Part shown: positions 7,118 through 59,994 of the stretch, one piece after another
How positions within the stretch are numbered: the stretch's first letter is position 1
Layout of the letters: the number at the start of each line of letters is the position of its first letter
Assembly: GCA_030646995.1 (NCBI GenBank)
Contig: JAUSKF010000002.1
Coordinates: forward strand, 76,092-140,091
Reading direction: 5' to 3'
DNA length: 64,000 nt
Origin: a bacterium
GTDB lineage: Bacteria > Patescibacteriota > Minisyncoccia > UBA6257 > WO2-44-18
Notes under the pieces: generated by a model
What the model was told of the DNA's origin: nothing
Database searches by the model: none
Seen by the model: only the letters and a program-made list of their open reading frames with translations
Translations under genes and position numbers: made by a program

Positions 7118-7690
7118 ATGGAACCAGTAAAACCAACAACTCAAGCAGTAGCGCCGGCAACCGGTAAACCAGGAGCCCCACATATGGGTGCCGCCACTCG
7201 CTTTGGCCAGCATCGTCCGGGTGGACGCCGCCCAGGGCGCCCGAAAGAGCAAAATCCATTCGGAATGAAAGATAAGATGTTGGATTTGCGTCGTGTTACC
7301 CGTGTAGTAGCCGGAGGTAAAAGATTCCGCTTCCGCGCCACAATTATTCTTGGTGATGAAAAAGGAAAAGTAGCTGTTGGTGTTGCTAAGGGATTAGACG
7401 TTCAATCCGCTATCTCTAAAGCTAAGCATGATGCCGCAAAGCATATCATTACCGTTCCGCTCAAAGGACGCACGATTCCTCATGAAGTTGCAGCAAAATT
7501 CAGCGCCGCTGATGTAATTATAAAACCAGCCAAAGAAGGTCACGGCTTGAGAGCGGGAGGCGCCGTACGCGTTGTGCTGTCATTGGCCGGAATCAAAGAT
7601 GCTACCGCCAAATGCCTTGGCCGCACTCCGAATAAATTGACTAATGCCCTCGCTACAATTGAAGCTTTAAAGAAACTGAAAAAGAAATAA
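7118..7690 (+). CDS. rpsE: 30S ribosomal protein S5 with Pro/Gly-rich N-terminal extension
   Basis: Core LDLRRVTRVVAGGKRFRFRATIILGDEKGKVAVGVAKG...; ~45-aa low-complexity N-terminus. Confidence 0.9.
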   Translation: MEPVKPTTQAVAPATGKPGAPHMGAATRFGQHRPGGRRPGRPKEQNPFGMKDKMLDLRRVTRVVAGGKRFRFRATIILGDEKGKVAVGVAKGLDVQSAISKAKHDAAKHIITVPLKGRTIPHEVAAKFSAADVIIKPAKEGHGLRAGGAVRVVLSLAGIKDATAKCLGRTPNKLTNALATIEALKKLKKK

Positions 7691-7694
7691 AATT

Positions 7695-8177
7695 ATGCAA
7701 TTACACGACTTAAAACCTAACCATCCGCTAAAAGCCAAAAAGCCGCGCGTCGGCAGAGGTGGTAAACGCGGAACTATGTCTGGAAAAGGGCAAAAAGGAC
7801 AAAAGTCCCGCGCTGGCCATCGTATCCGTCCGGCAGAACGCGACTTCATTCAACGCTTGCACAAATTGCGCGGTATTAAGAATAAACCTCACGAAGAAGG
7901 AGCGGCAGTTCTTAACGTTGGAGTTTTAGCTAAAATGGCTAAAGATGGCGTTATCAGCGAAAAAGTTCTTGGGAAAAAGGTGAAGATTTTAGGAGAGGGA
8001 GAAATTAAAGTAGCGCTAACGATAATGGGCTTAGAAATTTCTAAGTCTGCGCAAGCAAAGATTGAGAAAGCCGGTGGCAAAGTAGTGGTAGGAGTAAGAA
8101 TCGTACAGCCAGCGAAGGGGATGGGTAAGACGAGGTTGCCGGGCAGAAGGATAAAAGTAGCGGAGAAGACTAAATAA
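7695..8177 (+). CDS. rplO: 50S ribosomal protein L15
   Basis: 160 aa, KAKKPRVGRGGKRGTMSGKGQKGQKSR... typical L15. It begins 4 nt after rpsE, so no L30 gene lies between them. Confidence 0.85.
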   Translation: MQLHDLKPNHPLKAKKPRVGRGGKRGTMSGKGQKGQKSRAGHRIRPAERDFIQRLHKLRGIKNKPHEEGAAVLNVGVLAKMAKDGVISEKVLGKKVKILGEGEIKVALTIMGLEISKSAQAKIEKAGGKVVVGVRIVQPAKGMGKTRLPGRRIKVAEKTK

Positions 8178-8208: not shown

Positions 8209-9480
8209 ATGAATAAACTACTTCAAATCTTTAAAATTCCGGACCTAAGAAAGAAAGTTTTTTACGTTCTCTTGGGATTGGTAGCTTTCCGCATCCTTGG
8301 CGCAATCCCGATTCCGGGAATTGATGCCGCAAAGCTTGCCCAATTCTTTAATTCGAACCAAATTTTTGGCTTCTTCAACTTGTTTTCTGGTGGTGGTCTA
8401 ACCAATCTCTCCATCGTAATGTTGGGAGTCGGTCCATATATCACCGCCACAATCATCATGCAGTTGCTCACAATGATTTTCCCAAGCTTGAAAGTGATGT
8501 ACTACGAAGAGGGAGCGGCCGGCCGAGCTAAGTTCAATCGCATCTCCCGCTATCTCACTATTCCTCTAGCGGCTCTACAGGCATATACATTCTTAAAGTT
8601 GCTTGGTAGCCAAGGGATTCTAGGCACCCTAACACCACTAGAAGCCCTTCAAAATGTCCTCATTATTACTGCCGGTAGTATGCTCTTGACTTGGATTGGT
8701 GAATTAATCGGCGAGCAAAAAATCGGAAACGGAATCTCTCTTATTATCTTCGCCGGTATCATTAGCGCTCTTCCGACAGTCATTAAAAATACCGTCATCT
8801 CCTTTGATCCGGCGAATCTTCCTACCTACATCGCCTTCGCGATTCTTTCCGTGATTATTATCGCCGGAGTCGTCTTCGTGAACCAAGGAGAACGCAAAGT
8901 ACCGGTCTCATATTCCCGACGTATCCGAGGGAATAAAGTTTATGGAGGCTCATCCAGCTACTTACCGCTAAAAATTAACCAAGCGGGCGTAATCCCGATT
9001 ATCTTTGCCATTTCAATAATGCTTTTCCCGCAATTCTTTGCCCAAATTATTTCTCTTTTCGCGCCGGAGCCTGCGGCGACATTGCAAAACTTAATTAATC
9101 AATTCTTAAATAACCAATATATCTACAGCGCGGTCTACTTCACTTTGGTTGTCGCCTTCACTTATTTCTACACTTCGATCACTTTTGACCCCAAAGAAAT
9201 TGCAAAGAATCTCCAACAGAGCGGGGGATTCGTGCCGGGAATTCGCCCGGGCGAGCCAACCGGAGAATACATCGGCAATCTTACCAAGCGATTAACTTTG
9301 TTCGGAGCTTTATTCTTAGGCTTGATAGCAGTTTTGCCGAACCTGACCCAAATCCTTACGGGGGTGCAAACTTTAACTATCGGCGGCACCGGCCTATTGA
9401 TCGTGGTTTCGGTAGTATTGGAAACTATAAAGCAATTGGATTCGGAACTAACCCTCCGAGAATACGAGGGGATTCAGTAA
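8209..9480 (+). CDS. secY: preprotein translocase subunit SecY
   Basis: 423 aa, 10 TM, conserved SecY segments (GIDAAKLAQFFNS..., RPGEPTGEYI). Confidence 0.92.
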   Translation: MNKLLQIFKIPDLRKKVFYVLLGLVAFRILGAIPIPGIDAAKLAQFFNSNQIFGFFNLFSGGGLTNLSIVMLGVGPYITATIIMQLLTMIFPSLKVMYYEEGAAGRAKFNRISRYLTIPLAALQAYTFLKLLGSQGILGTLTPLEALQNVLIITAGSMLLTWIGELIGEQKIGNGISLIIFAGIISALPTVIKNTVISFDPANLPTYIAFAILSVIIIAGVVFVNQGERKVPVSYSRRIRGNKVYGGSSSYLPLKINQAGVIPIIFAISIMLFPQFFAQIISLFAPEPAATLQNLINQFLNNQYIYSAVYFTLVVAFTYFYTSITFDPKEIAKNLQQSGGFVPGIRPGEPTGEYIGNLTKRLTLFGALFLGLIAVLPNLTQILTGVQTLTIGGTGLLIVVSVVLETIKQLDSELTLREYEGIQ

Positions 9481-9533
9481 GGGCTCCGGGAATAGCCTCC
9501 GGCATGTTCCTCGAAACTATTCCCTGCGCTTTG
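9481..9533 (+). repeat. short (53-bp) member of a dispersed structured repeat family (GGGCTCCGGGAATAG...CTATTCCCTGCGCTTTG)
   Basis: Matches the two ends of the 141/149-bp copies at 58299-58439 and 21179-21327; starts on the nucleotide after the secY stop codon. Confidence 0.7.
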
Positions 9534-9544
9534 TATAATATTGA

Positions 9545-9580
9545 AAAGCCCCGTTTTAAACGGGGCTTTGATTTTATTTA
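9545..9580. terminator. rho-independent terminator (bidirectional) after secY and after the minus-strand 199-aa gene
   Basis: AAAGCCCCG-TTTAAA-CGGGGCTTT stem then T-run. Confidence 0.7.
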
Positions 9581-10915: not shown

Positions 10916-11674
10916 ATGATTCTTAAAACTAAAGAAGAAATTGAGAAGATCCGGCAGGCCGGAAAAATTTTGGCGCAGGTAGCAAAAACCATTCTCGCGC
11001 AGGTGGAAGTAGGCGTGAATCTTAAATCGCTAGACCGACTTGCCAAGGAGCTGATTACCAAAGCAGGGGGCAGTCCGGCGTTTTTGAATTACCGGCCATA
11101 CGGCGCCGATAAACCATACGCCTTTTCTATCTGCACATCGCTAAATGAAGTCGTAGTGCACGGCACTCCGAAAGACTACAAGCTAAAGAACGGCGACATT
11201 TTAAAACTGGATTTCGGGGTGGACTATCAGGGCTACAAAGCTGACGCCGCTTGGACCATCGGAGTCGGACAAATCAGCGAGCGGGCGCAAAAATTGTTGA
11301 GAGTTACCGAAAAAGCCTTGTTTGATGGAATCAAAGCGGCAAACATCGATAAACATTTAGGTGATATCGGCCACGCAATCTCCGACACCGTTAAACAACA
11401 TGGCTTTTCAGTAGTAGACGGGCTAACCGGTCACGGAGTTGGAAAAGAATTACATGAAGATCCTAGCGTCTTCAATGAAGGGAAGAAGGGGAGTGGCCCG
11501 GTATTAAAAGAAGGTCTAGTGATCGCTATCGAACCGATGGTCAGCATTGGCTCCCCTAGCATCATCCAAACAAAAGACGAGGCCTACGCGACCGCCGACG
11601 GCAGTCTTTCCGCCCACTTTGAGCACACGATTGCGCTGACGGAAAACGGCACAGAAATACTGACTCTGATATAA
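10916..11674 (+). CDS. map: methionine aminopeptidase type I
   Basis: 252 aa, pita-bread fold motifs (FSICTSLNEVVVHG, DFGVDYQGY, HGVGKELHE). Confidence 0.9.
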   Translation: MILKTKEEIEKIRQAGKILAQVAKTILAQVEVGVNLKSLDRLAKELITKAGGSPAFLNYRPYGADKPYAFSICTSLNEVVVHGTPKDYKLKNGDILKLDFGVDYQGYKADAAWTIGVGQISERAQKLLRVTEKALFDGIKAANIDKHLGDIGHAISDTVKQHGFSVVDGLTGHGVGKELHEDPSVFNEGKKGSGPVLKEGLVIAIEPMVSIGSPSIIQTKDEAYATADGSLSAHFEHTIALTENGTEILTLI

Positions 11675-16698: not shown

Positions 16699-16743
16699 TT
16701 GAATTTTTGTCCTTACTACTTACTACTCGCTACTTACTACTTT

Positions 16744-19788: not shown

Positions 19789-19811
19789 ATTATAAGTTTT
19801 CTAAAAATTTT

Positions 19812-19858
19812 AAGCAAAAGAAAATCCCCATAGCATCTTTGATACTATGGGGATTTTA
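19812..19858 (-). terminator. rho-independent terminator for the small membrane-protein gene
   Basis: AAATCCCCATAG...CTATGGGGATTT 12-bp stem, T-run on the minus strand. Confidence 0.65.
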
Positions 19859-19879
19859 CGGCGCCTACGCTGGCGTGTT

Positions 19880-20068
19880 TCATTCGGCCTCCTTTTTGGA
19901 AAAAAAGCACCAACCGACCCAGCAACCGGCGACTCCGCCGATTACCGCTCCGATCACGATCCCCACCCACGGCATCGGGTAGCTGTAGGCCAGCGGCTTT
20001 GCCGCGGCCATCAGCGCTCCGCTCGCCGCGCCGAGCACCGTCAACATCACCTTCAGTTTGCGTCTCAC
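19880..20068 (-). CDS. small membrane protein (62 aa, Gly-zipper TM helices)
   Basis: Two hydrophobic helices; GGGAGAG RBS upstream. Confidence 0.4.
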   Translation of the reverse strand: MRRKLKVMLTVLGAASGALMAAAKPLAYSYPMPWVGIVIGAVIGGVAGCWVGWCFFSKKEAE

Positions 20069-20434
20069 ACGAGTCTCTCCCTAGATAAAACTCTGTTTTG
20101 TCGGGCGACCAATCCACAATGGATTGGTTTAGCCTTTCCTAATTACTGTTTGCAAGTATAGCGGAAAATTTCCCCCTTGTCAAGGGCTCATCGGCATTTC
20201 TTTCAGGAACCCGGTCCGGCTAGAAAAAATAGATTCGCTCCGGTTGATTTTTGGGATAAATTGAACAGCTCCCGTTCCTCCCTTCGGGATTTTCCGGCCA
20301 TTCAATTTTTTAACCAAAAATCTGTCCTGCGCTCATTATTTTGGGCTAGCCTCCCCTTGTGGTTCCTTACAAAGAAATGCCGATTCGCTTTGTTCTATAA
20401 ACGACGCCCTAATCGCTAGTGCCTGCCGCAGTTT

Positions 20435-21085
20435 TTATTTGCGCCGCATTACATAAAAATGCACCGAAGCTCCTTGCTGATTGCCACTCTTGTGAACAAT
20501 TCTTTCCAGTATCTCAAAGTAGCTTCCATACAACACCTCCACTTGCTGTGGCGATACGGCAATTTTTTTGATCCACTCCTCCACCCCCGGCATTGGATCA
20601 TCTTCGCTTTCTTTGCCGAACGTTTCAAAAAAGTAGTACCCGCCACTAGCTTGAACCTCCGCCAACTGCTCGATAAAAGAACTTTTCTCGTCGCCAATTA
20701 AAAATTGCGAACTTAAAAGGTCTAAAACAACGTCATATCTACGGGCCGCAATTTCTTTAATTTTTGCGAGGGCTGAAAAGTCTCCAACGAAAAACTCACT
20801 TTTTGCTCCCGCCGACTTAGCTTTTTCTCTTGCTTCAGTAATTGCAACTTCGGAAATATCTATGCCAACTGTTTCAAATCCATTTTTAGCGAAAAAAATT
20901 GATTTATCACCCACGCCACAACCGATATCCAACAATAATCCGCCTGATAATTTATATTTTTTTATCAGTTCTAGAAAAAAATCCGCTCTTTCGCCGCCCC
21001 AAACCGCAACCCCCTTTTTCTGCTTGTAGAAATCATTCCATATCATAACCTTGGTAACGTCCACTTTCGAAACGGCAACCAACAT
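20435..21085 (-). CDS. class I SAM-dependent methyltransferase
   Basis: Motif I LLDIGCGVGDKS; start uncertain (track ORF starts 21142, internal Met at 21085). Confidence 0.65.
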   Translation of the reverse strand: MLVAVSKVDVTKVMIWNDFYKQKKGVAVWGGERADFFLELIKKYKLSGGLLLDIGCGVGDKSIFFAKNGFETVGIDISEVAITEAREKAKSAGAKSEFFVGDFSALAKIKEIAARRYDVVLDLLSSQFLIGDEKSSFIEQLAEVQASGGYYFFETFGKESEDDPMPGVEEWIKKIAVSPQQVEVLYGSYFEILERIVHKSGNQQGASVHFYVMRRK

Positions 21086-21178
21086 GCAACTTCCTTTCAA
21101 AGTTTCTAGCAAGATTATAGCCACGATAAGGAAAAATGACAATGGCTCGGTCTAATTACTTACAAGAACTCGATCCTC

Positions 21179-21327
21179 CAAAGCGCAGGGAATAGTTTCG
21201 AGGAACATGCCGGAGGCGATTTTGCTTGGTTCGTTTGTTAATACAAACGAAAAATCGCCGAGGGAGAGGCAAATTTGCTCGCTGGAAGCAAATTATGCCG
21301 TTTCCGAGGGGCTATTCCCGGAGCCCC
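21179..21327 (-). repeat. 149-bp full-length member of the structured repeat family
   Basis: Reverse complement aligns end to end with 58299-58439 except for a different-sequence central hairpin; abuts the ychF stop codon. Confidence 0.7.
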
Positions 21328-22346
21328 TATCCGTGACGGAATTCGGTAACGTCCCCATCCTGAAACACATATTCTTTTCCTTCTAAGCGGAGCCAGCCTT
21401 TTTGCTTGGCAGAGCTCCAAGAACCGGCTTCTAATAGTTTTTGCCAGTTGATGACTTCAGCTCGGATGAATTTCTTTTCAAAATCGGTGTGAATAGCGCC
21501 GGCGGCTTGCGGAGCTTTGCTTCCCTGTCGGATCGTCCAGGCGCGAGATTCATCTGGTCCGGTAGTGAAGAAGCTCATTAGGCCGAGGATTTCATAAGCT
21601 TTTTTCACCAGCTCTGGAATTTCAGCGGCAGAAGAAAGATCAGACACCACATATCCCGCTCCCCTTTCGGCAATCTTTCCCTTCAAATCTTCAGACACAT
21701 CCTCCGGTTTGCCGTTCAATAAATAAACCTGCTTTTTCGCGGTGAGCAAATTTAGAGCGGAAACTTTTTCATTCTCCAAAGCCTCGGCAAATTCCGGAGT
21801 AGCCAAATTTTTCCCGGACTCCAATGCTTCTTTAACTTTTTTAATTGCTTCAAAATCTTTGATTGCCTGCTTTTGCGCGGGCCCGCCGGTTTTCGTGTCG
21901 CCTTCCGCTTTTTTATAAACTTTTTCTATTGAATCCAAATCTTTCAACCCCAGCTCGGCGTTGATAATCTCCATATCCCGAATTGGGTCAACCGAATTTT
22001 CCACGTGAATAATTTCACTACTCTGAAAAACACGAAGCACCATCAAGACCGCGTTGGTTTCGCGGATGTGGGTCAAAAATTTATTTCCCAAACCCTCTCC
22101 AGCACTCGCGCCCTTCACCAAACCGGCAATGTCGTAGAACTCCACTATGGCAGGAATGGTTTTCGCTGACTTACTCATTTCTGTAAGCTTGCTCAAACGC
22201 TCATCAGGAACGGTAACCACGCCTACATTCGGATCAATTGTGCAAAAGGGATAGTTGGCAATATTTACGTCATTTTTCGTGAGTATTTTAAAGAGCGTGG
22301 ACTTCCCCACGTTCGGCATCCCCACGATTCCGATAGATAATTTCAT
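21327..22346 (-). CDS. ychF: redox-regulated ATPase YchF (Obg-like GTPase family)
   Basis: MKLSIGIVGMPNVGKSTLF...NYPFCTIDPNVG; start set at the internal Met. Confidence 0.85.
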   Translation of the reverse strand: MKLSIGIVGMPNVGKSTLFKILTKNDVNIANYPFCTIDPNVGVVTVPDERLSKLTEMSKSAKTIPAIVEFYDIAGLVKGASAGEGLGNKFLTHIRETNAVLMVLRVFQSSEIIHVENSVDPIRDMEIINAELGLKDLDSIEKVYKKAEGDTKTGGPAQKQAIKDFEAIKKVKEALESGKNLATPEFAEALENEKVSALNLLTAKKQVYLLNGKPEDVSEDLKGKIAERGAGYVVSDLSSAAEIPELVKKAYEILGLMSFFTTGPDESRAWTIRQGSKAPQAAGAIHTDFEKKFIRAEVINWQKLLEAGSWSSAKQKGWLRLEGKEYVFQDGDVTEFRHG

Positions 22347-23540: not shown

Positions 23541-23566
23541 CCCCCTCATTGAGGGGGTTTTTGTTG
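23541..23566 (+). terminator. rho-independent terminator
   Basis: CCCCCTC-ATT-GAGGGGG + TTTTTGTT. Confidence 0.7.
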
Positions 23567-23629
23567 CCAAAGCTATTTTTTTCTGGTAAAATAACTCCGG
23601 TTACTTTTACAAGAAAAGAGGAGGCTAGA

Positions 23630-24910
23630 ATGAACCGCGCAGTAATCGTGGACGGAGTACGAACTCCTTTTATGAAGGCGGGCTCGCTGACGAGTCTGCG
23701 GGCAACTACTCTGGGATGCGACGTAATCGAACATTTGCATCTGAATCTTCATGGGTTCCGGCTCGAGGACATTGATTTGGTAATTGGCGCCAACGTCGGC
23801 AACCAAGTTCTCCCCCCCGACGGTTCTAATCTGACCCGCCTGATTGCCTTAAAAGCAGGGATTCCAATAAAAGTTCCGGCTTTTACGGTAAATATCAATT
23901 GCGCTAGCGGCCTTCATGCCATTTTGACAGCGGTGAAAGAGGTGGAGCTGGGTCTGGCGAATTGCGTATTGGTGGTAGCGGTAGAAGTAATGTCGGATTA
24001 CACCGCCGCCTACAGCCGTAAACAGCGGCAGAAATTCGCTAATCTCCTGACAGCATCGAGAAGTAAATCGCTTTTGAAAAAGCTTTCATCCACCGCTTCA
24101 GCGCTTGTGAAAGTAAAGATTATGAAGCATGACCCGCAGTGGATGATTAAACTCGGTTTGACCGATCCGTCCTGTAATTTGAGTATGGATAAGGTTTCCG
24201 ACAAGATTGCCGAGAAATACAAAATTTCCCGAGAAGAGCTGGATCTCTATGCTCTGGAGTCTCACCGAAGAGCAAATAATGCATCAGATCGTTTGCGCGG
24301 AGAAATGTGTTCATTCACCCTGAATGGAAAAAAAGAGCTGCCGTGGTTCTATGATGACGGCGTTCGGCCAAATCAGACTTTGGCGGCACTCGCGAAATTG
24401 AAACCGCTGAATGAAGGCGGGGTCACGACCGCAGGAAATTCCTCCCAGATCACTGACGGCGCCGTGGCATTCCTAATCGCCAACAAAGAATGGGCAGCAG
24501 CAAGAAAGCTTCCTGTGCTAGCCGCGATGAGTTCTAAAAATTCTGCGGCCTGCGGCTGTGAACCCTCGATGATGGGTCTCGGGCCGGTCGGCGCTATCTC
24601 TAAGTTGAGGGCGCAGGGTTGGACCAAGATGAGTGATTTCTCTGTTGTGGAGACCAATGAAGCTTTCGCTTCTGTGGTGCTCGCTCAGTCGAAGATGCTC
24701 AAAGAGATTGGAATGGGTCCGCTTGATTGGGATCGCACCAACGTAAATGGCGGCGCGATCGCTATCGGCCATCCGATCTCCGCAAGTGGTGCCAGACTGG
24801 TGTTGACCTGCGCGAAAGAACTTCAGCGACGCAATCAGCAATATGGCCTCGTGACACTTTGTGTCGGTGGCGGCCAGGGTGTCGCGGCAGTGATTGAAAA
24901 CAATGAGTAG
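23630..24910 (+). CDS. fadA: acetyl-CoA C-acyltransferase / 3-ketoacyl-CoA thiolase (FadA-type)
   Basis: Thiolase N-terminus VIVDGVRTPF, active-site region NINCASGL, C-terminal NVNGGAIAIGHP and CVGGGQG; GAGGAGG RBS. Confidence 0.8.
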   Translation: MNRAVIVDGVRTPFMKAGSLTSLRATTLGCDVIEHLHLNLHGFRLEDIDLVIGANVGNQVLPPDGSNLTRLIALKAGIPIKVPAFTVNINCASGLHAILTAVKEVELGLANCVLVVAVEVMSDYTAAYSRKQRQKFANLLTASRSKSLLKKLSSTASALVKVKIMKHDPQWMIKLGLTDPSCNLSMDKVSDKIAEKYKISREELDLYALESHRRANNASDRLRGEMCSFTLNGKKELPWFYDDGVRPNQTLAALAKLKPLNEGGVTTAGNSSQITDGAVAFLIANKEWAAARKLPVLAAMSSKNSAACGCEPSMMGLGPVGAISKLRAQGWTKMSDFSVVETNEAFASVVLAQSKMLKEIGMGPLDWDRTNVNGGAIAIGHPISASGARLVLTCAKELQRRNQQYGLVTLCVGGGQGVAAVIENNE

Positions 24911-24916
24911 CCCCAT

Positions 24917-24951
24917 CCCCGTGTTCAACGCGTTGAACACGGGGATTTTTT
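24917..24951 (+). terminator. rho-independent terminator, member of the CAACGCGTTG hairpin family
   Basis: CCCCGTGTTCAACGCGTTGAACACGGGG perfect 28-nt palindrome + TTTTTT. Confidence 0.75.
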
Positions 24952-24953
24952 AT

Positions 24954-24989
24954 ATAACACTTATGTCCTGGTCAGGATATAAGTGTTAT
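24954..24989. promoter_or_regulatory. 36-bp near-perfect palindrome (candidate operator) between fadA terminator and fadB start
   Basis: ATAACACTTAT-GTCCTGGTCAGGAT-ATAAGTGTTAT, nested inner palindrome TCCTG..CAGGA. Confidence 0.4.
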
Positions 24990-25064
24990 ATTTTCATTCT
25001 TGATTTTTCGTTGAGTTCCTGTTATTTTAAGTTCGGTTCGTTCACAAACGAAAGGGAGAAAATA

Positions 25065-27080
25065 ATGAGTAAGTTCTGGAAATGTTCGACCGACGAAGAA
25101 GGAAATATGGTTGCCGAGCTTGATCTCGGACCGGATGAAAAGCAAAACCTTTTGCGGGCGGAAGTTCTGAAGGAATTGAACGTCATTTTGTCTACGAACA
25201 ACCCGAAGTGTCTGATTATCACGACTGCCAAGCCGCACAGTTTCTGCGCGGGCGCGGATGTCGGAGAAATCAACGCTTTGGCGAACGGGAAACAGGAACA
25301 TCTGGTAGCAGCTCTCGAGAGTATGCATGCGCTTCTGCTGAAGATTCGCAATTCCTCTTATCCAATCGTGGCCGCGACTTCCGGAGAATGTCTGGGGGGC
25401 GGAACCGAACTAGTACTCGCCTGCCACAAGCGCATTGCCGCAAGACACCCTAAGACGCGCTTCGGCTTGCCTGAAGTGATGCTGGGAGTGATTCCCGGTT
25501 TCGGTGGAACACAGCTGTTGCCAAAGTTGGTCGGAGTCCGGAAAGCAATGGAAGTGATTGTTGGCCAGAGGAAGCTCTCGGCTGATGATGCTCTCAAATG
25601 CGGATTAGTGGACAAAGTTGTGATTCCGGAACTGCTAATCGTGGAGGCAAAAAAAATTGCGTTTGAAGAAACGGAACGTAAGAAACTTTCGTGGGTAGAC
25701 AGAATCGGCGCCGTTCGTGATTTCGTGATGAGAATGGCAAAAAAGCAGACTCTGAAAGCCACGAAAGGTGTCTACCCTGCTCCGATGAAAGCCATCGAAG
25801 CAATCGATTTCAGCGACGCCAATCTGGAAGACGGTTTGGCCCGTGAAGGCCAACTCTTCCTCGAATGCGCCGCGACGATGGAGTCCGCCAGCTTGCGGGA
25901 TATTTTTCTGAAACAGCGCGAGGCAAAATCCAAAGATTGGATTGGTGTCAATCCGCCATCCGCCCATTCTGGCGGAGGCGGAACTCCTCCGGAAAAAGTA
26001 CTTATGCTCGGTGCCGGCGTAATGGGACGCGCAATCGCTTACGCCGTTCTGGCGGGAGGCGTGAGGGTGAACCTGCACGATATGAGTTCAAAAGCGATTC
26101 ACGAAGCGGTATTGTTCATCGAAGGACAGCTCGCTAAAGAAGTCAAAAAGAGCAAGCTCTCGCTTGAGAAAGCGCAGGGCATGCGCGATCGGCTGATTGT
26201 CAGCTACGGCGATGAGCCGACGATCGATGGCGTGGATTTCGTGATTGAGGCGATCGTGGAAGATCTGACCATCAAGCCGCGGGTTCTAGCCGAGCTGGAA
26301 AAGAAACTTCCGGAGAATGCGGTCATCGCCACCAACACTTCTTCGCTCCTGCCGAGCGATATTGCCGCTCCCCTGACTCGCAAAGACAAGTTCTGCGCGA
26401 TGCACTTCTTCAACCCGGCCCACAAAATGGACCTGGTAGAGATCGTTGGCACGGCGGAAACTTCCAAAGAAACTCTGGCAAAAACGCTGGCGCTCATCAA
26501 AGCGATGGGTAAGACCCCGATCCTTTTGGATAAGGAATGCGCCGGCTTGCTGGTGAATCGAGTACTGGTGCGTGGAATGGCTAAGGCGCTTGATTGTCTA
26601 TTGTCGGGAGAAGATCCTTGGGAAATAGACATGGCGCTCGAAGGGGCCGGAATGGTTATGGGTCCGTTCAAAACCATCGACCTCGTCGGCTTCGACATTG
26701 CCTACCACGTGATGAAGATGATGGGCCACTACTATCCGGAGATTTACGGGAAAACAGAAGTCGGCAATCTGGAGCTGCACAAGTTTAAGGACATACTCGG
26801 TCAGAAAACCGGTAAAGGTTTCTATGTCTGGGAGAACAACAAAGCCGTAAAGCCCAACAAGGAAATTTTGAAGAAGTTCGGCTGGGAGTTGTTCCCACAT
26901 GACAAAGAAATCGGAGCATTGGACTGCTGTCATTTGATCCGCAAAGAAATGAACGAAGAAGCGATGGCGCTCGTTAGCGAACGCATCTGCTCCGATCCGA
27001 ATATGATTGACCTCTCGCTGGTACTGGGTGCCGGACTCTTCCCGAACCGGCGCGGACTGCTGAAAAATCCGATCATCTAA
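25065..27080 (+). CDS. fadB: multifunctional fatty-acid oxidation protein (enoyl-CoA hydratase + 3-hydroxyacyl-CoA dehydrogenase, FadB/FadJ-like)
   Basis: N-terminal crotonase fold, then GAGVMGRAIA Rossmann NAD site, 3HCDH C-terminal domain; AAAGGGAG RBS. Confidence 0.8.
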   Translation: MSKFWKCSTDEEGNMVAELDLGPDEKQNLLRAEVLKELNVILSTNNPKCLIITTAKPHSFCAGADVGEINALANGKQEHLVAALESMHALLLKIRNSSYPIVAATSGECLGGGTELVLACHKRIAARHPKTRFGLPEVMLGVIPGFGGTQLLPKLVGVRKAMEVIVGQRKLSADDALKCGLVDKVVIPELLIVEAKKIAFEETERKKLSWVDRIGAVRDFVMRMAKKQTLKATKGVYPAPMKAIEAIDFSDANLEDGLAREGQLFLECAATMESASLRDIFLKQREAKSKDWIGVNPPSAHSGGGGTPPEKVLMLGAGVMGRAIAYAVLAGGVRVNLHDMSSKAIHEAVLFIEGQLAKEVKKSKLSLEKAQGMRDRLIVSYGDEPTIDGVDFVIEAIVEDLTIKPRVLAELEKKLPENAVIATNTSSLLPSDIAAPLTRKDKFCAMHFFNPAHKMDLVEIVGTAETSKETLAKTLALIKAMGKTPILLDKECAGLLVNRVLVRGMAKALDCLLSGEDPWEIDMALEGAGMVMGPFKTIDLVGFDIAYHVMKMMGHYYPEIYGKTEVGNLELHKFKDILGQKTGKGFYVWENNKAVKPNKEILKKFGWELFPHDKEIGALDCCHLIRKEMNEEAMALVSERICSDPNMIDLSLVLGAGLFPNRRGLLKNPII

Positions 27081-27089
27081 TAACCTCAA

Positions 27090-27116
27090 GCCCCCTTTTC
27101 AAAGGGGGTTTTTTGT
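27090..27116 (+). terminator. rho-independent terminator
   Basis: CCCCCTT-TTCAA-AGGGGG + TTTTTTGTTTT. Confidence 0.7.
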
Positions 27117-27153
27117 TTTAAAATAGCTTCGGTTCCTTAATAAGGAGAAAGAC

Positions 27154-29139
27154 ATGGACGTTGCCAAGTCTTTGGGAGCGGGAGTGGCGATTGCAGAAGC
27201 AAGTCGCGACAAAGAAAAGCTGGCCAGTCTGATGCCGGATATTTTCCGGGGAAAGTTGGATGTCAGTTATTTCGAAGATCTTCCGAAAGACACTTTGTGC
27301 GATTTGAAGTTCCAGGCGAACTATCGAAAACTCGAGGAATTTTTGAAAACGGAAGTCGATCCGAATGAGATCGAGAAAACCAATGAAGTTCCGAAAGGGG
27401 TCTTGGATTGGCTTTGTGAAAATGGCTACTTCGCTCTGAAGTTGCCGGAAAAGTATGGCGGTATGAATCTGTTGCAGTCCCAGTATATGGCGCTGCTTCA
27501 GCTGACTGCCACGCGTTGCGGAGCGCTCGTTGCTTTGCTTTCTGCCTCCAACACCATCGGTGTCGGTTGGCCGATCATGGCTTTCGGCTCTCCGGAACAG
27601 CAGGATACCTGGCTTCCATTGGTTGCTAAGTCCCCTTCCGGATTCGCCTTCACTGAAGAAAAGGCCGGTTCCGATCCTTCCAGTATGGAAACCCATGCTG
27701 TGCGGGTTCGCGAAAACGGTAAGGTGGCCGGTTACCAGATTAGCGGTCGCAAGTGGTGGACCACTAACGGCCCGGCCAGCGACAATTCCTATCTTTCCAA
27801 GGTGATCATTGTGATCGCCAAGATCGTGGATTATCCGGATCAGCTTTCCGATTTGGAATACAAAAAGAATCCCGTTTTCGGAGCTTTTATTGTTCCGACT
27901 GGTTCTCCGGGAGTAAAGGTTGTTCAGAGATGTGAGTTCCTCGGTTTGAGGGGCATCTACAACGGCATCACGGACTTCGAAAAAGTCTACATTCCGCTCG
28001 AACAGCTGATCGGGAAGAAGACCGATTCCAGCGGAAAAACCGAATACTATCAGGAAGGTTCCGGTTTCCGGATCGCTTTGCAGGCGCTCAACAGCGGCCG
28101 AATCACGGTCTCCGGTTGTTGCTCTGCAACTGCCAAGATCGCTCTGCAAGTCGAGCGTTGGTGGGGTCTTACCCGCCATCAGTGGGGAAAGCAGATCGGC
28201 CAGCATGAACTTGTTGGCACCGGAAAGCTTGCCGAAGGCGTCGCGAAAGCTTTTACGATGGAAGCGATGACCTGGTTTGCCGCCGGTCGCGCTGATAAGC
28301 ATCTGGATTGCCGGATGGAGGCCGCGACTGCCAAAGTCTTCAATTCCGAACAACTCTGGCAGATCGTTGATGATCTGGCGCAGATCCGTGGTGGACGAGC
28401 CTACGAAACTCCGGAATCTCTGAAGAAGCGAGGCGAAGCGCCGATCCCAGTTGAAAGAATGATCCGCGATGCTCGGCCGAATCGAATCTTCGAAGGCGAA
28501 TCCTCGATCCTTGGACTGTTCGTAGTTCGTGAAGGAGTTGAGGAATACAAGGCGCAGGGTGAAATCTTCTTTGAAAAAGGCCGGTACGGAAAGAAAATGA
28601 AGGCCGCTGTTGGCTTCGCGAAAGAACTCGCTAAGCTTTCTATCCCGAACTTTAAAATGCGTTCACAAATCAAAAAGTTCTCGAAGGATTGGCCTCAGCT
28701 TGCGAAGCACCTACTTCACGCAGATAAGTGCGCGCGGAAGCTGGCAAAAGCGATCATTATCATTTCCGGTAAGTACCAGGCCAAGCTGATGCATAAGCAG
28801 CTGACCCTTACCCGGTTCTTCAATATCGCCACCGAGATCTACGCGATGGCCGCTGTTTGCGGATACGTGATCAAGGAGTGGCCGGTCCACGCAAAGGCTG
28901 ATCTGGCTGACTTCTATTGCCAGGGAGCCCGCCGTAGGATCGAAAAAGAATTCGCCGCCTTGTCGGACAACAGTGATGCGCTCGGTCGCAAAATTGCCAA
29001 TCTCACTCTAATGAATGGCTACGAAGATTTCCTTACGGACGGCACCATTCCGATGGTTGAGATGCTGGATCTGAAAGATCCCCAGCCTCCGAACCTCATG
29101 CCGCTGCCGCACTCACGCCGTGTTGATCGTAAAGCCTAA
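27154..29139 (+). CDS. long-form acyl-CoA dehydrogenase
   Basis: ACAD N-, middle and C-terminal domain motifs (GYFALKLPEKYGG, FAFTEEKAGSDPSSMET, WWTTNGP, QIRGGRAYE), ~250-aa extra C-terminal domain. Confidence 0.75.
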   Translation: MDVAKSLGAGVAIAEASRDKEKLASLMPDIFRGKLDVSYFEDLPKDTLCDLKFQANYRKLEEFLKTEVDPNEIEKTNEVPKGVLDWLCENGYFALKLPEKYGGMNLLQSQYMALLQLTATRCGALVALLSASNTIGVGWPIMAFGSPEQQDTWLPLVAKSPSGFAFTEEKAGSDPSSMETHAVRVRENGKVAGYQISGRKWWTTNGPASDNSYLSKVIIVIAKIVDYPDQLSDLEYKKNPVFGAFIVPTGSPGVKVVQRCEFLGLRGIYNGITDFEKVYIPLEQLIGKKTDSSGKTEYYQEGSGFRIALQALNSGRITVSGCCSATAKIALQVERWWGLTRHQWGKQIGQHELVGTGKLAEGVAKAFTMEAMTWFAAGRADKHLDCRMEAATAKVFNSEQLWQIVDDLAQIRGGRAYETPESLKKRGEAPIPVERMIRDARPNRIFEGESSILGLFVVREGVEEYKAQGEIFFEKGRYGKKMKAAVGFAKELAKLSIPNFKMRSQIKKFSKDWPQLAKHLLHADKCARKLAKAIIIISGKYQAKLMHKQLTLTRFFNIATEIYAMAAVCGYVIKEWPVHAKADLADFYCQGARRRIEKEFAALSDNSDALGRKIANLTLMNGYEDFLTDGTIPMVEMLDLKDPQPPNLMPLPHSRRVDRKA

Positions 29140-45641: not shown

Positions 45642-45676
45642 TTGACTTACCCTAAAATTATAGCATTTTGCTAATT

Positions 45677-45823
45677 AGTGCTGCCGAATAGCTTTCTCGG
45701 ACACAGCGTTGCTGGCCTCCGGCGGGCCAGCCCGCTTCTCTCTCGACAAGTTGTTTCGGCTAATCGCCGAAAACCAATCCAACTTGCCTCCGAGATGTTC
45801 CTTAAAAGCCATTCGGCAGCACT
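45677..45823. repeat. 147-bp element with 16-bp terminal inverted repeats (AGTGCTGCCGAATAGC / GCCATTCGGCAGCACT) and internal hairpins
   Basis: Seen directly; GC-rich relative to flanks, between a terminator and the amidohydrolase start. Confidence 0.5.
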
Positions 45824-45837
45824 AGCGAATCAAACAA

Positions 45838-45865
45838 AAAACCTCCCTTGCGGGAGGTTAGTCTT
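45838..45865 (-). terminator. rho-independent terminator after the 130-aa gene
   Basis: CCTCCC-GCAA-GGGAGG followed by TTTTTTGTTTG on minus strand. Confidence 0.65.
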
Positions 45866-46342: not shown

Positions 46343-47944
46343 CTATGCCGACACTACCAGATGATCATATGCCGCGAGCGTAAGGAACTCGGGGAACTTT
46401 TCGGAAAATACCATCTCCCGGAAAATCTTTTCGGCGAGGTTAAACTTCCCGCCCGCCCAGGCGGGCAAGCCCCGCAAATCCTGCATCACTTCCTTAATCA
46501 CTTCATCCAAAGCCTTAGCCGAACACATTTCCACGTTGTGCTTCCGCCACTGCCAAATCTGTGCGCGAGAAATCTCTGCCGTCGCCGCATCTTCCATTAG
46601 GTTGTTCAAAGTGACACAACCGACGCCCCGCAGCCAAGCCTCCAGATACTGGATGCCGATACTGACATTACTGTATACGCCATCGCCGCTAATTGCCCCC
46701 TTCGGAACGCGGAGCAAATCTTCCGCGGTGACATGGACATCTTCACGCAAAACATCCAGCTGATTCGGCCCGGGCATTCCCAGATCGAAAATTTCTTTCA
46801 CATCCGGAACATACGCCGGATGAGAAACCCATTTACCATCAAAGCCCAACCCTATCTCACGCGCAGAATCAGCTTTAACTTTCAGGCTATTTGCGATGTT
46901 AACTTTCTCATCCTTGCTGGGACTCTGCGCCGCCATTCCGCCCATCGCGAGAGCTCCCCGCTTATGACAGGTCTCCACCAGAAGATCAGCATACGGAGCG
47001 AGAAAACCTCCGTCCATTTTCAAAGTGGAGCGGTCCGGCAAAACAAAACGCGGATGAGCAGAAAGCTTCTTGATGTAGCTGAAAATGTAGTCCCAGCGGC
47101 CGCAATTCAGGCCAGCCGAATGCTCGCGAAGAGCATAGAGAATTTCTTCCATCTGGAACGCCGCCGGCAAAGTCTCAATCAGCACGGTCGCGCGGATAAT
47201 TCCCCGCGGCAAACCAAACTGGTCTTCAGACCACCGGAAGATTGCATCCCAAAGCATCGCTTCGACAGAGCTCTCCATTTTAGGAAGGTAGAGATAAACT
47301 CCCGTACCTTTATCTACGAGTGCCTGAGCGTTATGGAAAAAATACATTCCGAAGTCGAACAAACTCGCCGACATCGGCTTGCCGTCCACCAGCACGTGCT
47401 TCTCCGGCAAATGCCAGCCGCGAGGACGGAAAAACTGCACAGCTGTTTTTTCTTTCAGCGCATACTTTTTCCTGCCGGTCTCAAAATCAATCTGCCTTCT
47501 TACAGCGTCAAAAAGATTAATCTGCCCGTTGACGATATTCGCCCAAGTCGGAGCATCGGAATCTTCCGAGTCCGCCATGTAGCAATTCGCCCCGGAGTTC
47601 AAAGCATTAATTACCATCTTCCGGCTTGATGCCGGCCCGGTAATCTCCACTCGCCTATCTTCCAGATCTTTCGGAGCCGGAACAACTTTCCATTCGGAAG
47701 TACGAATAACCGTATTGCCGAAAGAAAGGCTACGGAAATCGCCGGTGTCTAGCCTGCGCTGGAAAACATCTCGCCACTCCAAATTTTTCCTGCGAATATC
47801 TCCGAACTCTTTATTAAGTTCGCCAACGAAGCGCAGGGCTTCAGGCGTCAGAATTTTCTCGTCCCCTTCTACCTTCGGACCTCTGACTCGGACGTCAGTA
47901 TTCACAAACCTCTCCTTTTCAATGGACCGAGAAGAGCATATCAA
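46343..47944 (-). CDS. aceB: malate synthase A
   Basis: Contains the malate synthase signature region ...REHSAGLNCGRWDYIFSYIKK...; 533 aa, typical of the A form. Confidence 0.85.
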   Translation of the reverse strand: MICSSRSIEKERFVNTDVRVRGPKVEGDEKILTPEALRFVGELNKEFGDIRRKNLEWRDVFQRRLDTGDFRSLSFGNTVIRTSEWKVVPAPKDLEDRRVEITGPASSRKMVINALNSGANCYMADSEDSDAPTWANIVNGQINLFDAVRRQIDFETGRKKYALKEKTAVQFFRPRGWHLPEKHVLVDGKPMSASLFDFGMYFFHNAQALVDKGTGVYLYLPKMESSVEAMLWDAIFRWSEDQFGLPRGIIRATVLIETLPAAFQMEEILYALREHSAGLNCGRWDYIFSYIKKLSAHPRFVLPDRSTLKMDGGFLAPYADLLVETCHKRGALAMGGMAAQSPSKDEKVNIANSLKVKADSAREIGLGFDGKWVSHPAYVPDVKEIFDLGMPGPNQLDVLREDVHVTAEDLLRVPKGAISGDGVYSNVSIGIQYLEAWLRGVGCVTLNNLMEDAATAEISRAQIWQWRKHNVEMCSAKALDEVIKEVMQDLRGLPAWAGGKFNLAEKIFREMVFSEKFPEFLTLAAYDHLVVSA

Positions 47945-51764: not shown

Positions 51765-52481
51765 CTAACTAAAATTGTGGTTCTTAACGCCATCTATCCA
51801 GCCAATTATGCGATGGAATAGCTTGGTATCACTTATTCTAACCTGCAAAACCCCATAAGGCAAGCGATTAAATGGCCTCTTTCCCATACTGGATTTACTA
51901 ATTCCAAGATAGGTTTTATTAAAGTTCTCCCTGGGAATACCGGTTGTCTTAACCCAATACTTCAGGGTCGCCTCAGCATTCATATGTTGAAAAATTCTTA
52001 AATTGGCTTTTATTTTCTCGACCGGTACTTTACAAATCTTTTTAATAAACGCCAAGAAGACATTGATTAAAACCGGATCAGCATTAGTAAGACTAATGGG
52101 GTGATATGTGACTTCCCTTCCACCTCTCACAATCGGCCGCTTATACCCCTCCGCCCAGTACAACGCCAAACCGATAAAAAATAGATTCTGAATAGAGATA
52201 TTTGCAATCTCGCCGTGCGCTAATTTCTGGATTTCTTCTTTTCTTTGCAGAGCCAAATGAGTTTGATTTTTATTTCTTTTCAAAAGGCCTTCCAACGATT
52301 TTTGTTTGGACCGATTCTCAATTTTTTCCCTTGCACTCGCGGATAAAACTATGTTTTTCAACCATAGCGACAAAGTAGACTTAGAAATACCAGGCAAGGT
52401 TTTCTGGATTTCGCTATAACTCTTGCCCTGCAACCGTAGCTTAATGGCCGAGAATTTATCATTACGCATTATATATATCAT
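51765..52481 (-). CDS. HTH + LAGLIDADG-like domain protein; candidate free-standing homing endonuclease ending 4 nt from the intron-containing tRNA
   Basis: N-terminal HTH KSYSEIQKTLPGISKSTLSLWLKN; motif FIGLALYWAEGYK resembles a LAGLIDADG helix ending in E-G. Confidence 0.3.
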   Translation of the reverse strand: MIYIMRNDKFSAIKLRLQGKSYSEIQKTLPGISKSTLSLWLKNIVLSASAREKIENRSKQKSLEGLLKRNKNQTHLALQRKEEIQKLAHGEIANISIQNLFFIGLALYWAEGYKRPIVRGGREVTYHPISLTNADPVLINVFLAFIKKICKVPVEKIKANLRIFQHMNAEATLKYWVKTTGIPRENFNKTYLGISKSSMGKRPFNRLPYGVLQVRISDTKLFHRIIGWIDGVKNHNFS

Positions 52482-58262: not shown

Positions 58263-58298
58263 TGGCAATAAAGTAGCAAGAAATCTTATTAAAGTCAA

Positions 58299-58439
58299 GG
58301 GCTCCGGCCAATAGCCCCTCGGAAACGGCATAATTTGCTTCCAGCGAGCAAATTTGCCTCTCCCTCGCTTCGCCACTTTAGATAAGACCAAGCTGGCGAA
58401 GCTCCGGCATGTTCCTCGAAGCTATTGGCCTGCGCTTTG
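58299..58439 (+). repeat. 141-bp full-length member of the structured repeat family, in the divergent SPFH / membrane-protein promoter region
   Basis: Shares both ~50-bp arms with 21179-21327. Central hairpin differs in sequence but keeps pairing. End pairing GGCCAATAGC/GCTATTGGCC covaries with GGGAATAG/CTATTCCC of the other copies. Confidence 0.7.
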
Positions 58440-58458
58440 TTATAATTAAGCGATACCG

Positions 58459-59994
58459 ATGAAAAAAATTAGCGCCGCTTTGTTAATTTTAGGAGCTTTA
58501 GCGGTTTTTTGGCATTTTGTATCGCCGAACATACCCGATCTGGATAGTTTTTTTTATCTCGGAAAGGCCTTATTGATGCGAGAGCAGGGTTTGGCGGAAG
58601 CAACCTTCCCATGGGCCCAGCTGTCGGTCATTAAAGAAACTTCATCTTCCTTATGGTTCGGCTTCAGCTTATTGATGCTCCCCTTTTCTTTTTTGCCGTC
58701 ACCCTCTCTGGCGATTAAAATATTCGGAATCTTGGTCACCCTTTTCGCCTTGGGGTCGTGCTATTTCGTGGCGCGGCGGCATCAATTCCACTGGCCGATC
58801 TTTTGGCCGCTCCTGATGTTTTTTTCCGCGCCTAATGTCACGGCGCAGCTCCTGATGGTCCGCCCGCAAACTCTGACAGTCGGCCTCGGTTTGCTTTTGC
58901 TGTCGTTTCTGATCCGTGGCGGCTGGATGCCGGTCTTTATAGTTTCCTTTTTCATCTCTTGGATTCATTTAAATTTTTCCTGGATAGCCATCGCTATTTT
59001 GGGCATAGTAATAGTTGGCCGAATAATTATTGATAGAAAAGTAGAATGGCTGAAAATCATCGCGGTACCCGCGGCTTTATTGCTTGGCTGGGTAGCCCGC
59101 CCGAATCCGATCGGCGCCGCAAAACTTTTTTATATCCAGGTAGTCCAACAAATATTAGAGAAGCAAAGTGGGCTTCCCCTTCTTTTTGGCACCGAAAACC
59201 TTCCCCTTGGTTCAGCGACGCTCTTCCGTAACTTTTCGCCATTCCTGGCCATCTGGATATTCGCCGGTCTAATGCTCGCTTGGTGGATAATCAAAAAACA
59301 GCTAGTGGATAAACAAAAAATTCTGATTGCCTCGTCGTCAGTCTTCTTGTCATTGGTGTTTTTCTCGTTAAGCATCCTGATAGCGCGCCGGAGTTATAAT
59401 TTCTGGATTGCATTTGGAGTTCTGGCCATCGCCCTAGCCTTCAGTTGGATATTAGATTTAGCCAGGCAACGTTATGATTTAAAACCCCTAAAAGACTGGG
59501 CAGCCGGAATTGCTGTCTTCTCTTTAATATTTCTGACCTTCTTCTCCGGGTTAAAAACTCTGAATAGTCTGGCGAAAAGCTACCCGCCGGACCTAATGAA
59601 AGAATCTGCGGAATGGCTGGCAAAAAATTCCCAACCCGGAGATTTAGTGTTCAATCTGCATTGGAGCCATTTTTCTCCTTTATTTCTCTGGAATCGCTCT
59701 AATTATTACATCGGGGGGCTGGATCCAATTTTCCAATACCGCTACAACCCCGAACTTTACTGGCTTTTCCACTATCCGTCAGCCGGCATAAGCACCTCCG
59801 TGACCTGCCGATACCTAGAATGCACCAATGACTCAGTAGAAAGCACCTATTCTGCTCTGAAAAACGACTTTCGCGCGAAATATATTCTGGTCAGCAAGCC
59901 GCACAATCCAAACTTCAATAAATTCGCGGCCTCCGACCCAAGATTTGAAAAGGTGTTTGAGGCTGTCAATGAAGTCGTTTATCTAATAAAATGA
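58459..59994 (+). CDS. large polytopic membrane protein, paralog A (candidate GT-C-fold glycosyltransferase)
   Basis: ~10 TM + C-terminal soluble domain; D-x-D-S-F-F/Y motif in first extracytoplasmic loop (IPDLDSFFY); paralog of 60014-61579. Confidence 0.5.
   Translation: MKKISAALLILGALAVFWHFVSPNIPDLDSFFYLGKALLMREQGLAEATFPWAQLSVIKETSSSLWFGFSLLMLPFSFLPSPSLAIKIFGILVTLFALGSCYFVARRHQFHWPIFWPLLMFFSAPNVTAQLLMVRPQTLTVGLGLLLLSFLIRGGWMPVFIVSFFISWIHLNFSWIAIAILGIVIVGRIIIDRKVEWLKIIAVPAALLLGWVARPNPIGAAKLFYIQVVQQILEKQSGLPLLFGTENLPLGSATLFRNFSPFLAIWIFAGLMLAWWIIKKQLVDKQKILIASSSVFLSLVFFSLSILIARRSYNFWIAFGVLAIALAFSWILDLARQRYDLKPLKDWAAGIAVFSLIFLTFFSGLKTLNSLAKSYPPDLMKESAEWLAKNSQPGDLVFNLHWSHFSPLFLWNRSNYYIGGLDPIFQYRYNPELYWLFHYPSAGISTSVTCRYLECTNDSVESTYSALKNDFRAKYILVSKPHNPNFNKFAASDPRFEKVFEAVNEVVYLIK

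Follow-up and report, generated by a model that had tools for sequence, protein, structure and literature searches.

A lineage-restricted family of structured, probably mobile-type intergenic repeats in Parcubacteria-like genomes

Introduction

Non-autonomous derivatives of IS200/IS605-type single-strand transposons (IS608, ISDra2), which include PATEs and the REP/BIME sequences with RAYT, have no terminal inverted repeats. They do not duplicate their target, and they insert in a fixed orientation 3' of a specific sequence of 3–5 nt. Each end carries a separate sub-terminal hairpin, and on the folded (top) strand the target lies 5' of the element. These elements depend on folded single-stranded DNA, which tolerates G-T pairs.

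ERIC/IRU and Correia (NEMIS) elements are intergenic repeats of 100–160 bp that are often co-transcribed at the 3' ends of genes, fold into long imperfect hairpins, and occur as internal deletion and insertion variants. Both have terminal inverted repeats and TA target duplications (PMC3184786). The bcr1 repeat of the Bacillus cereus group is ∼155 bp long, interspersed and lineage-restricted, and its structure is kept by compensatory changes at the single-strand (RNA) level. Copies of bcr1 have 5-bp direct repeats with a TTTAT motif on both sides (PMC3184786, PMC6542083).

Genomes of the candidate phyla radiation (CPR) are tiny and are regarded as containing few repeats and little mobile DNA. 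Here five copies of one repeat were found in the window, that is, the whole 64-kb stretch of DNA that was analyzed, from a Parcubacteria-type genome. The repeats share the general nature of bcr1, ERIC and Correia but fail their defining end features. They are best read as a lineage-restricted, previously undescribed family of non-autonomous repeats of mobile type that depend on their structure, a reading that we hold to be probable. No match to the family was found in databases or in the literature.

Results

Family members in the window

The original prediction, drawn from the letters of the window alone, had proposed a dispersed family of three structured copies. The three copies are real. 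The 25-nt 3' arm occurs three times and the 33-nt P4 (inner) arm twice in the window, against 0 expected in shuffles for either. The count was too low, however, as five members are present in the window: two full copies that are nearly identical, a 53-nt deleted copy, a divergent full copy (45676–45826) and a type B copy (20184–20392), the last two of which had been missed. The repeats are 120–210 nt long, apart from deletion derivatives. Coordinates and scores are collected in Table 1.

A covariance model seeded from the two long copies and a match in L001 (L numbers denote DNA of relatives) found the divergent copy, while the type B copy was found by end-motif and profile searches. Covariance-model E-values were 1e-25 to 1e-44. 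nhmmer profile searches of all fetched loci gave no additional copies. A weak model match at 19816–19862 is a terminator hairpin and not a family member. With the model, annotators can mask or label these elements in Parcubacteria MAGs.

The arms of the two long copies (21179 and 58299) are 100% identical over 58 + 19 nt. The 53-nt copy had been described as the two ends joined without the middle, and it indeed lacks 95 nt from the interior of a long copy, the two parts meeting at a GCC microhomology. The divergent copy is 52–59% identical to the other copies and keeps every helix, and its outer stem is extended to ∼20 bp; its boundary cannot be placed to the base. The type B copy has the termini (CAAAGCG...GAGCCC on the folded strand) and the P1-P2-GGAAC...CGGAGG base of type A, while its interior is a long rod with an apical insertion relative to the type B copies of L079 and L087. 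No ORF is conserved. The only ORF common to the copies has no AUG in the divergent copy and runs for just 10 codons before a stop in the focal copy, and a protein-coding element was therefore rejected.

The focal copy lies between a −35-like TTGACT, which belongs to the promoter of an SPFH gene, and the start of the gene at 58459. The divergent copy lies between a terminator (45840–45859) and the TGCTATAAT promoter of an amidohydrolase gene, and the 53-nt copy between the secY stop and a bidirectional terminator (9545–9569). The GGGCTC end of the type B copy adjoins the −35 TTGACA of a minus-strand promoter (20183–20155). At the 21179 copy the GGGCTC end adjoins the TAG stop of the convergent ychF. 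Two copies had been said to begin on the nucleotide after a stop codon. This holds for the secY TAA (9478–9480) and the ychF TAG (21327–21329), except that nucleotide 21327, which had been counted as part of the element, is the last base of the stop.

Table 1. Coordinates, scores and loci of the repeat family and of associated features
Feature	Position or locus	Strand	Remarks
Type A, full, 141 nt (focal copy)	58299..58439	(-)	Folded strand is minus; covariance model 144.9 bits
Type A, full, 148 nt	21179..21326	(+)	Folded strand is plus; covariance model 165.1 bits
Type A with 95-nt internal deletion (P1 and junction loop only)	9481..9533	(-)	28.9 bits
Type A, divergent, full	45676..45826	(-)	101.6 bits; 143.7 bits with later model
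Type B, 209 nt	20184..20392	(-)	193 bits
P1 5' strand GGCCAAUAGCUUC, focal copy	58418..58430	(-)	Pairs with 58306–58318 (GGGGCUAUUGGCC); 13 bp including 2 G-U
P3, focal copy	58363..58407	(-)	CC/GG base, GGA/GA internal loop, 9-bp variable stem GCUUCGCCA/UGGCGAAGC
P4 hairpin, focal copy	58327..58358	(-)	GGCA-AAUUUGCU / AGCAAAUU-A-UGCC, loop CGCUGGA, bulged A
TTGACT, −35-like hexamer adjoining element end	58293..58298	(-)	Orthologous promoter in L089 has TTGACA at the same point and no element
TATAAT, host sequence	58441..58446	(+)	Flanks focal copy; absent beside homologous copies elsewhere
SAM-methyltransferase gene	20435..21142	(-)	Bracketed by type B and type A, inverted, GGGCTC ends outward
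Folding energy of 58299, RNA parameters			−68.3 (favored strand) vs −55.3 kcal/mol (originally proposed strand)
Folding energy of 21179, RNA parameters			−61.5 (favored strand) vs −52.1 kcal/mol (originally proposed strand)
Folding energy of 45677, RNA parameters			−85.3 (favored strand) vs −70.8 kcal/mol (originally proposed strand)
Folding energy of 58299, DNA parameters			−36.7 (favored strand) vs −29.9 kcal/mol (originally proposed strand)
Type A copies	L076, L077		SecY 93% and 90% identical
Type A copies	L081, L088, L001		One species, SecY 83%
Type A copy	L090
Type B copies	L079, L087
GGGCTC-end flank TAA	secY, this genome
GGGCTC-end flank TAG	ychF, this genome; secY, L079; rplT, L001; T4SS-like gene, L090
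GGGCTC-end flank TAGA	ychF, L087
GGGCTC-end flank (T)CAA	Focal copy; type B copy; L081b; L001b

Fold, covariation and folded strand

From the ends inward, the fold consists of a short outer helix P0, a P1 of 12–13 bp, a symmetric tandem GA/GA loop, P2 (GGAAC/GUUCC), and a three-way junction with P3 and P4. P3 has a base of 2–3 bp, a GGA/GA internal loop, a variable stem and an exposed UUGG, a conserved motif that is also contained in the P3 loop of the focal copy. P4 has a bulged A and, in most copies, a CRCNGGA loop, and across genomes its stem covaries in sequence. At the junction, the nucleotides GGAAC, CGGAG, CGAG and UCC(G/A)AG are invariant.

Selection on secondary structure had been proposed from the window copies, and covariation across eight full copies bears this out. 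These copies are 50–80% identical, and 94.7% of their pair cells are canonical. Double compensatory changes were found at 33/48 pairs, in an alignment that was fitted to the model and whose sequences are easily aligned by eye. None of 500 shuffles matched the observed covariation values. When partners were shifted by 1–3 columns as register-slid controls, pairing fell to 26–52%, with at most 10 double-change pairs. RNAalifold independently arrived at this fold and assigned it a covariation term of −10 kcal/mol.

The two long copies illustrate these changes. The central hairpin had been said to be unrelated in sequence with its pairing preserved, and the central 9-bp stem, CTTCGCCA/TGGCGAAG in one copy and GCGATTTT/AAAATCGC in the other, is fully paired in each, all differences being compensated. 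The claim that the terminal pairing covaries is likewise borne out. The outer terminal stem, GGGAATAG/CTATTCCC vs GGCCAATAG/CTATTGGCC, reads GGG/CCC in one copy and GGCC/GGCC in the other, so that even one extra base per side (a 1-nt indel) is compensated.

Wobble pairs favor the reverse complement of the orientation in which the repeat was originally read. The ratio of G-U to A-C was 10:0 for four copies, 13:0 for seven and 14:2 for eight. The favored strand also folds better with RNA as well as DNA parameters (Table 1). Wobble asymmetry and better folding thus place the selected strand antisense to secY, ychF, rplT (L001) and the T4SS-like gene (L090), and the orientation originally assumed has to be reversed.

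Distribution among relatives and site occupancy

The genome is a Parcubacteria/Harrisonbacteria-like MAG, its SecY being 100% identical to a MAG protein in NCBI and its named relatives belonging to Parcubacteria and Harrisonbacteria. DNA of relatives was fetched via SecY, YchF and SPFH homologues. The search of relatives for copies and empty sites that had been suggested as a check was productive on both counts: more members are present in at least four related Parcubacteria-like genomes (Table 1), and empty orthologous sites were found. All members come from only five related genomes. A scan for a conserved 19-mer, with one genome per GTDB species, returned one true homologue (L001) and 18 chance matches in GC-rich coding DNA. 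All 31 matches from a gapped-pattern scan of JGI metagenomes were due to chance, and four scans of viral contigs yielded nothing real. For the species of L001, L081 and L088, the MAG CAZJFE01 is labelled Candidatus Saccharibacteria. Its YchF is identical to that of Parcubacteria group bacterium Gr01-1014_19 and its loci are near-identical, and judging from these sequences the Saccharibacteria label is probably wrong.

Filled and empty sites occur among relatives whose YchF proteins are 88–93% identical. The ychF site holds type A in this genome and type B in L087, so two subfamilies occupy the same site in different genomes. It is empty in L086, L079 and L088; in L086 and L079 the next promoter begins right after the TAG. 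No element is present at the SPFH promoter of L089, whose TTGACA begins at exactly the end point of the element. The site of L081b is empty in L079 and in the window, and the L079 promoter starts with TTGACA at the element end point. The stop of the T4SS-like gene is occupied only in L090; in the window, L079 and L088 AAA... comes after its TAG. The window (∼16700–16743) has a TAG-rich spacer, TAGAAAGTAGTAAGTAGCGAGTAGTAAGTAGTAAGG, right behind the stop of the T4SS-coupling-protein-like gene, with a similar one in L088 and the family member in its place in L090.

The 3' end of secY is occupied in every relative with a SecY identity of at least 83%. It carries the deleted type A copy in this genome, full A' copies in L076 and L077, type B in L079, and in L081 a 5'-truncated type A copy (L081:11299–11435) plus a type B remnant. 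At secY (in this genome and in L079) and at rplT (L001) the element has the stop codon on one side and an intrinsic terminator on the other, which implies that it is co-transcribed on the sense strand within the 3' UTR at these three loci. In the more distant L084 (SecY 77%) secY is followed by an unrelated structured insert of ∼150 nt (11276–11458). Its long stem, GGTTGGTTTTGTG...CACAAAACCAAC, extends with the 3' arm as far as the stop codon. The Logan contig L085 breaks inside this insert.

In three samples, Logan short-read contigs break off within the element. With five copies in 64 kb, the dense family displays continuing turnover between genes and interrupts short-read assemblies at essential operons.

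Between ychF and a 135-aa gene lies a 1.5-kb block (19790–21326) that is absent from relatives. It holds, in order, type A, the SAM-methyltransferase gene, inverted type B, a promoter, a 62-aa membrane-peptide ORF and a terminator. The methyltransferase together with its type A and type B brackets is missing from relatives, and the block looks like a composite insertion bounded by family members.

Boundaries, target and flanking sequence

One boundary of the element is exact. Read in the originally proposed orientation, 10 of the 11 copies with a placeable boundary have TAG, TAA or (T)CAA directly before the GGGCTC end (Table 1). The CAA flanks are the complement of −35 TTGACA or TTGACT boxes, and in one case the 3' end of a tmRNA gene. 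In L076 and L077, 10 nt separate the stop from the A' copy. The flanking trinucleotides are native in empty orthologous sites. At the other side, the two flanks are never cleanly alignable in pairs of filled and empty sites, so the CAAAGCG-side boundary is set only by homology between copies.

The expanded member L001b (L001 7255–7525) adjoins the 3' end of that tmRNA gene (7510–7823, minus strand). An exact 18-nt direct repeat of the tmRNA 3' end brackets the 253-nt insert in which this member lies. Such an integrase-like att signature is seen at none of the other copies.

The original prediction had suggested that target-site duplications be sought in a larger sample. In a flank table of 13 copies, no di- to octanucleotide is common to both sides. 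A GGAT-like similarity flanks only the 21179 copy and the L090 copy and is absent elsewhere, and it was discarded as a target duplication. TA duplications, IS630-type CTAG targets and attC core sites were considered, and none was found. The ends GGGCTCCGG... and ...GCGCTTTG are not inverted repeats: P1 pairing begins 7–9 nt inside, and the outer nucleotides are non-complementary.

Two copies had been noted to be followed by TATAAT, with the suggestion that the element exports a −10 element to downstream genes. TATAAT does follow two window copies, but it is flanking host DNA, absent from the third copy that had been listed for the window and from all copies in other genomes. The hexamer thus lies outside the element, and export of a −10 is not borne out. 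The TATAAT at 58441 is probably the −10 of gene 58459–59994, whose ATG lies 13 nt on. At the short copy, TCGAAA of the element and the flanking TATAAT, with 17 nt between them, make a promoter-like match (9511–9539, 10/12 match). It faces only the terminator and is probably fortuitous, and at the focal copy the spacing fails. No T-run follows the stem on either strand, as an intrinsic terminator would have, and separate canonical terminators lie beside copies.

Discussion

Comparison with described systems

A MITE or Correia-like element had been proposed. The behavior fits a small non-autonomous mobile element, with filled and empty sites and with truncated and deleted copies, but the terminal inverted repeats and target-site duplications of such elements are missing. 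The same two features separate the family from ERIC and Correia repeats, and the IHF site and promoter features of Correia were not seen. The likeness to bcr1 lies in size, patchy distribution (filled and empty sites) and compensatory changes (double changes at most pairs). Unlike bcr1, the family has no flanking repeat or TTTAT motif and docks with one end on T(C)A(A/G). In sequence it shows no similarity to bcr1, its host belongs to another phylum, and its fold has a three-way junction.

The absence of terminal inverted repeats and duplications, together with oriented insertion 3' of a short specific sequence, recalls HUH transposons of the IS200/IS605 type. In the present family, however, a single global fold pairs both ends, and the wobble-favored strand has the target on its 3' side, opposite to IS608. 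Pfam identified no Y1 HUH transposase (TnpA or RAYT) among the window ORFs. Given the position of the target and the pairing of the ends, membership of the IS200/IS605 derivatives is not supported.

Integron attC sites are similar in their variable length and variable center, the conservation of structure over sequence, the position directly after ORFs and the folded strand antisense to the ORF. They differ in that the repeats have no RYYYAAC/GTTRRRY core sites, no integrase and no array, and that the neighbors secY, ychF and rplT are core genes.

A scan of the whole window at gathering thresholds with Rfam 15, whose families include self-cleaving ribozymes and the HEARO and IS605-orfB RNAs, also covered the 53-nt copy (9481–9533) and found only one tRNA. 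At E ≤ 10, the four full-length copies yielded no match or only noise well under the threshold. Hammerhead, twister and K-turn readings of the junction were rejected by inspection and the Rfam scans.

A possible mode of mobilization

If the repeats are mobile, a master copy would be mobilized through a folded single-stranded intermediate (ssDNA or RNA) by a trans-acting enzyme encoded elsewhere in the genome. Joining would occur in a fixed orientation and without duplication of the target, T(C)A(A/G), which would lie directly 5' of the GGGCTC end. TAG and TAA stops and the TGTCAA complement of −35 boxes would be those copies of the target where insertion is harmless, so that the surviving insertions would lie exactly after stops, between stop and terminator and folded antisense, or exactly upstream of promoters. 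A short T(C)A(A/G) target plus purifying selection would explain why the repeats sit exactly at stop codons and −35 edges, where, in intergenic spacers as short as these, the target can be hit without harm. The target rule would then be a cause and not a result of selection, and the copies would be neutral for the host. Inserted copies would later decay by internal deletion or truncation, or recombine together. Service as a mobilization substrate would be the most economical reason for a selected single strand. Both truncated copies retain the anchored end, which fits one-ended copying.

Pfam searches of the window ORFs identified no transposase, reverse transcriptase or integrase. With no mobilizing enzyme among these ORFs, we infer mobility from the comparison of presence and absence and not from a mechanism. 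An HTH_23 protein (51765–52481) was considered as the partner enzyme and rejected, as it resembles a homing-endonuclease-type protein. The long-term upkeep of four helices exceeds that of most MITEs and counts against mobility. The two long window copies have arms that are 100% identical yet P3 stems that are swapped, which needs recombination or strong selection. Finally, the occupancy of the secY 3' end in all of the closer relatives could instead mark a conserved functional locus.

There is a small but appreciable chance that the family reflects something more unusual. This could be an undescribed CPR mobilization route, in which a folded single strand (ssDNA with an unrecognized HUH-type enzyme, or RNA by target-primed reverse transcription) is anchored with one end at T(C)A(A/G) and homes without duplication, and with precision, to stop codons and the outer edge of −35 boxes, or it could be a new functional RNA with a three-way junction in multiple copies. 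The exact docking after stops and before −35 boxes without a target duplication, and a strand-specific selected fold that sets it apart from classical MITEs, are the reasons why the family may lead to an unrecognized single-strand transposition or retro-mobilization system, or to a new structured RNA.

Alternative explanations

The copies might be multicopy genes for a trans-acting structured ncRNA of ∼150 nt, protein-binding or an undescribed ribozyme, which is transcribed from the folded strand, was duplicated, and is kept by selection at each site. Strong covariation in all helices, invariant junction nucleotides between copies that are only 50–60% identical, and a G-U asymmetry that indicates one functional strand would all be expected of such genes. 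The presence of a member beside secY in every close relative and the complete identity of the arms of the 21179 and 58299 copies point the same way. We nevertheless regard this explanation as unlikely. Consensus scans, which unusual promoters could escape, found neither a conserved promoter ahead of the folded strand nor a terminator behind it. An intrinsic terminator 15–33 nt upstream of four copies, at 15 nt for three, leaves no room for a promoter, and the 3' end of the element runs directly into a convergent gene. Truncated and internally deleted copies are found even at the conserved secY site, other sites are filled or empty among close relatives, and Rfam has no match.

Equally hard to favor is a cis-acting element with a host function, either a stabilizer or processing site in the 3' UTR of the sense strand or an insulator that keeps read-through away from promoters and convergent genes, in which a mobile origin would be secondary (exapted, as proposed for REP/ERIC). 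Copies between stop and terminator at secY (this genome and L079) and rplT (L001) would suit the former, other copies lie directly upstream of −35 boxes, and ERIC-type repeats in 3' UTRs have been reported to alter mRNA stability (PMC3184786). The wobbles, however, show selection on the strand antisense to the adjoining genes and not on the mRNA strand. Orthologous genes in close relatives do without the element, and its positions relative to genes are heterogeneous. For these reasons a cis-acting function appears improbable as the primary explanation.

Similarity by chance, or plain palindromic sequence between genes without a selected higher-order structure, terminators for instance, has next to no probability: hairpins alone can produce low-scoring matches to the model, the 19816–19862 match being only a terminator hairpin, but this reading is refuted by exact repeats of 25–33 nt against 0 expected, by the E-values, by covariation beyond that of all shuffles, and by the lack of a U-tract after the stem.

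Other features of the window

The HTH_23 protein mentioned above is encoded by a 238-aa ORF on the minus strand that has a LAGLIDADG-like GLALYWAEGYK motif and unusually long non-coding gaps around it. It may be a free-standing gene of the homing-endonuclease type. At 23549–29139 and 46343–47944 the window encodes thiolase, enoyl-CoA hydratase/3-hydroxyacyl-CoA dehydrogenase and acyl-CoA dehydrogenase (a β-oxidation-like set) and malate synthase, which are unexpected for a Parcubacteria-type genome.
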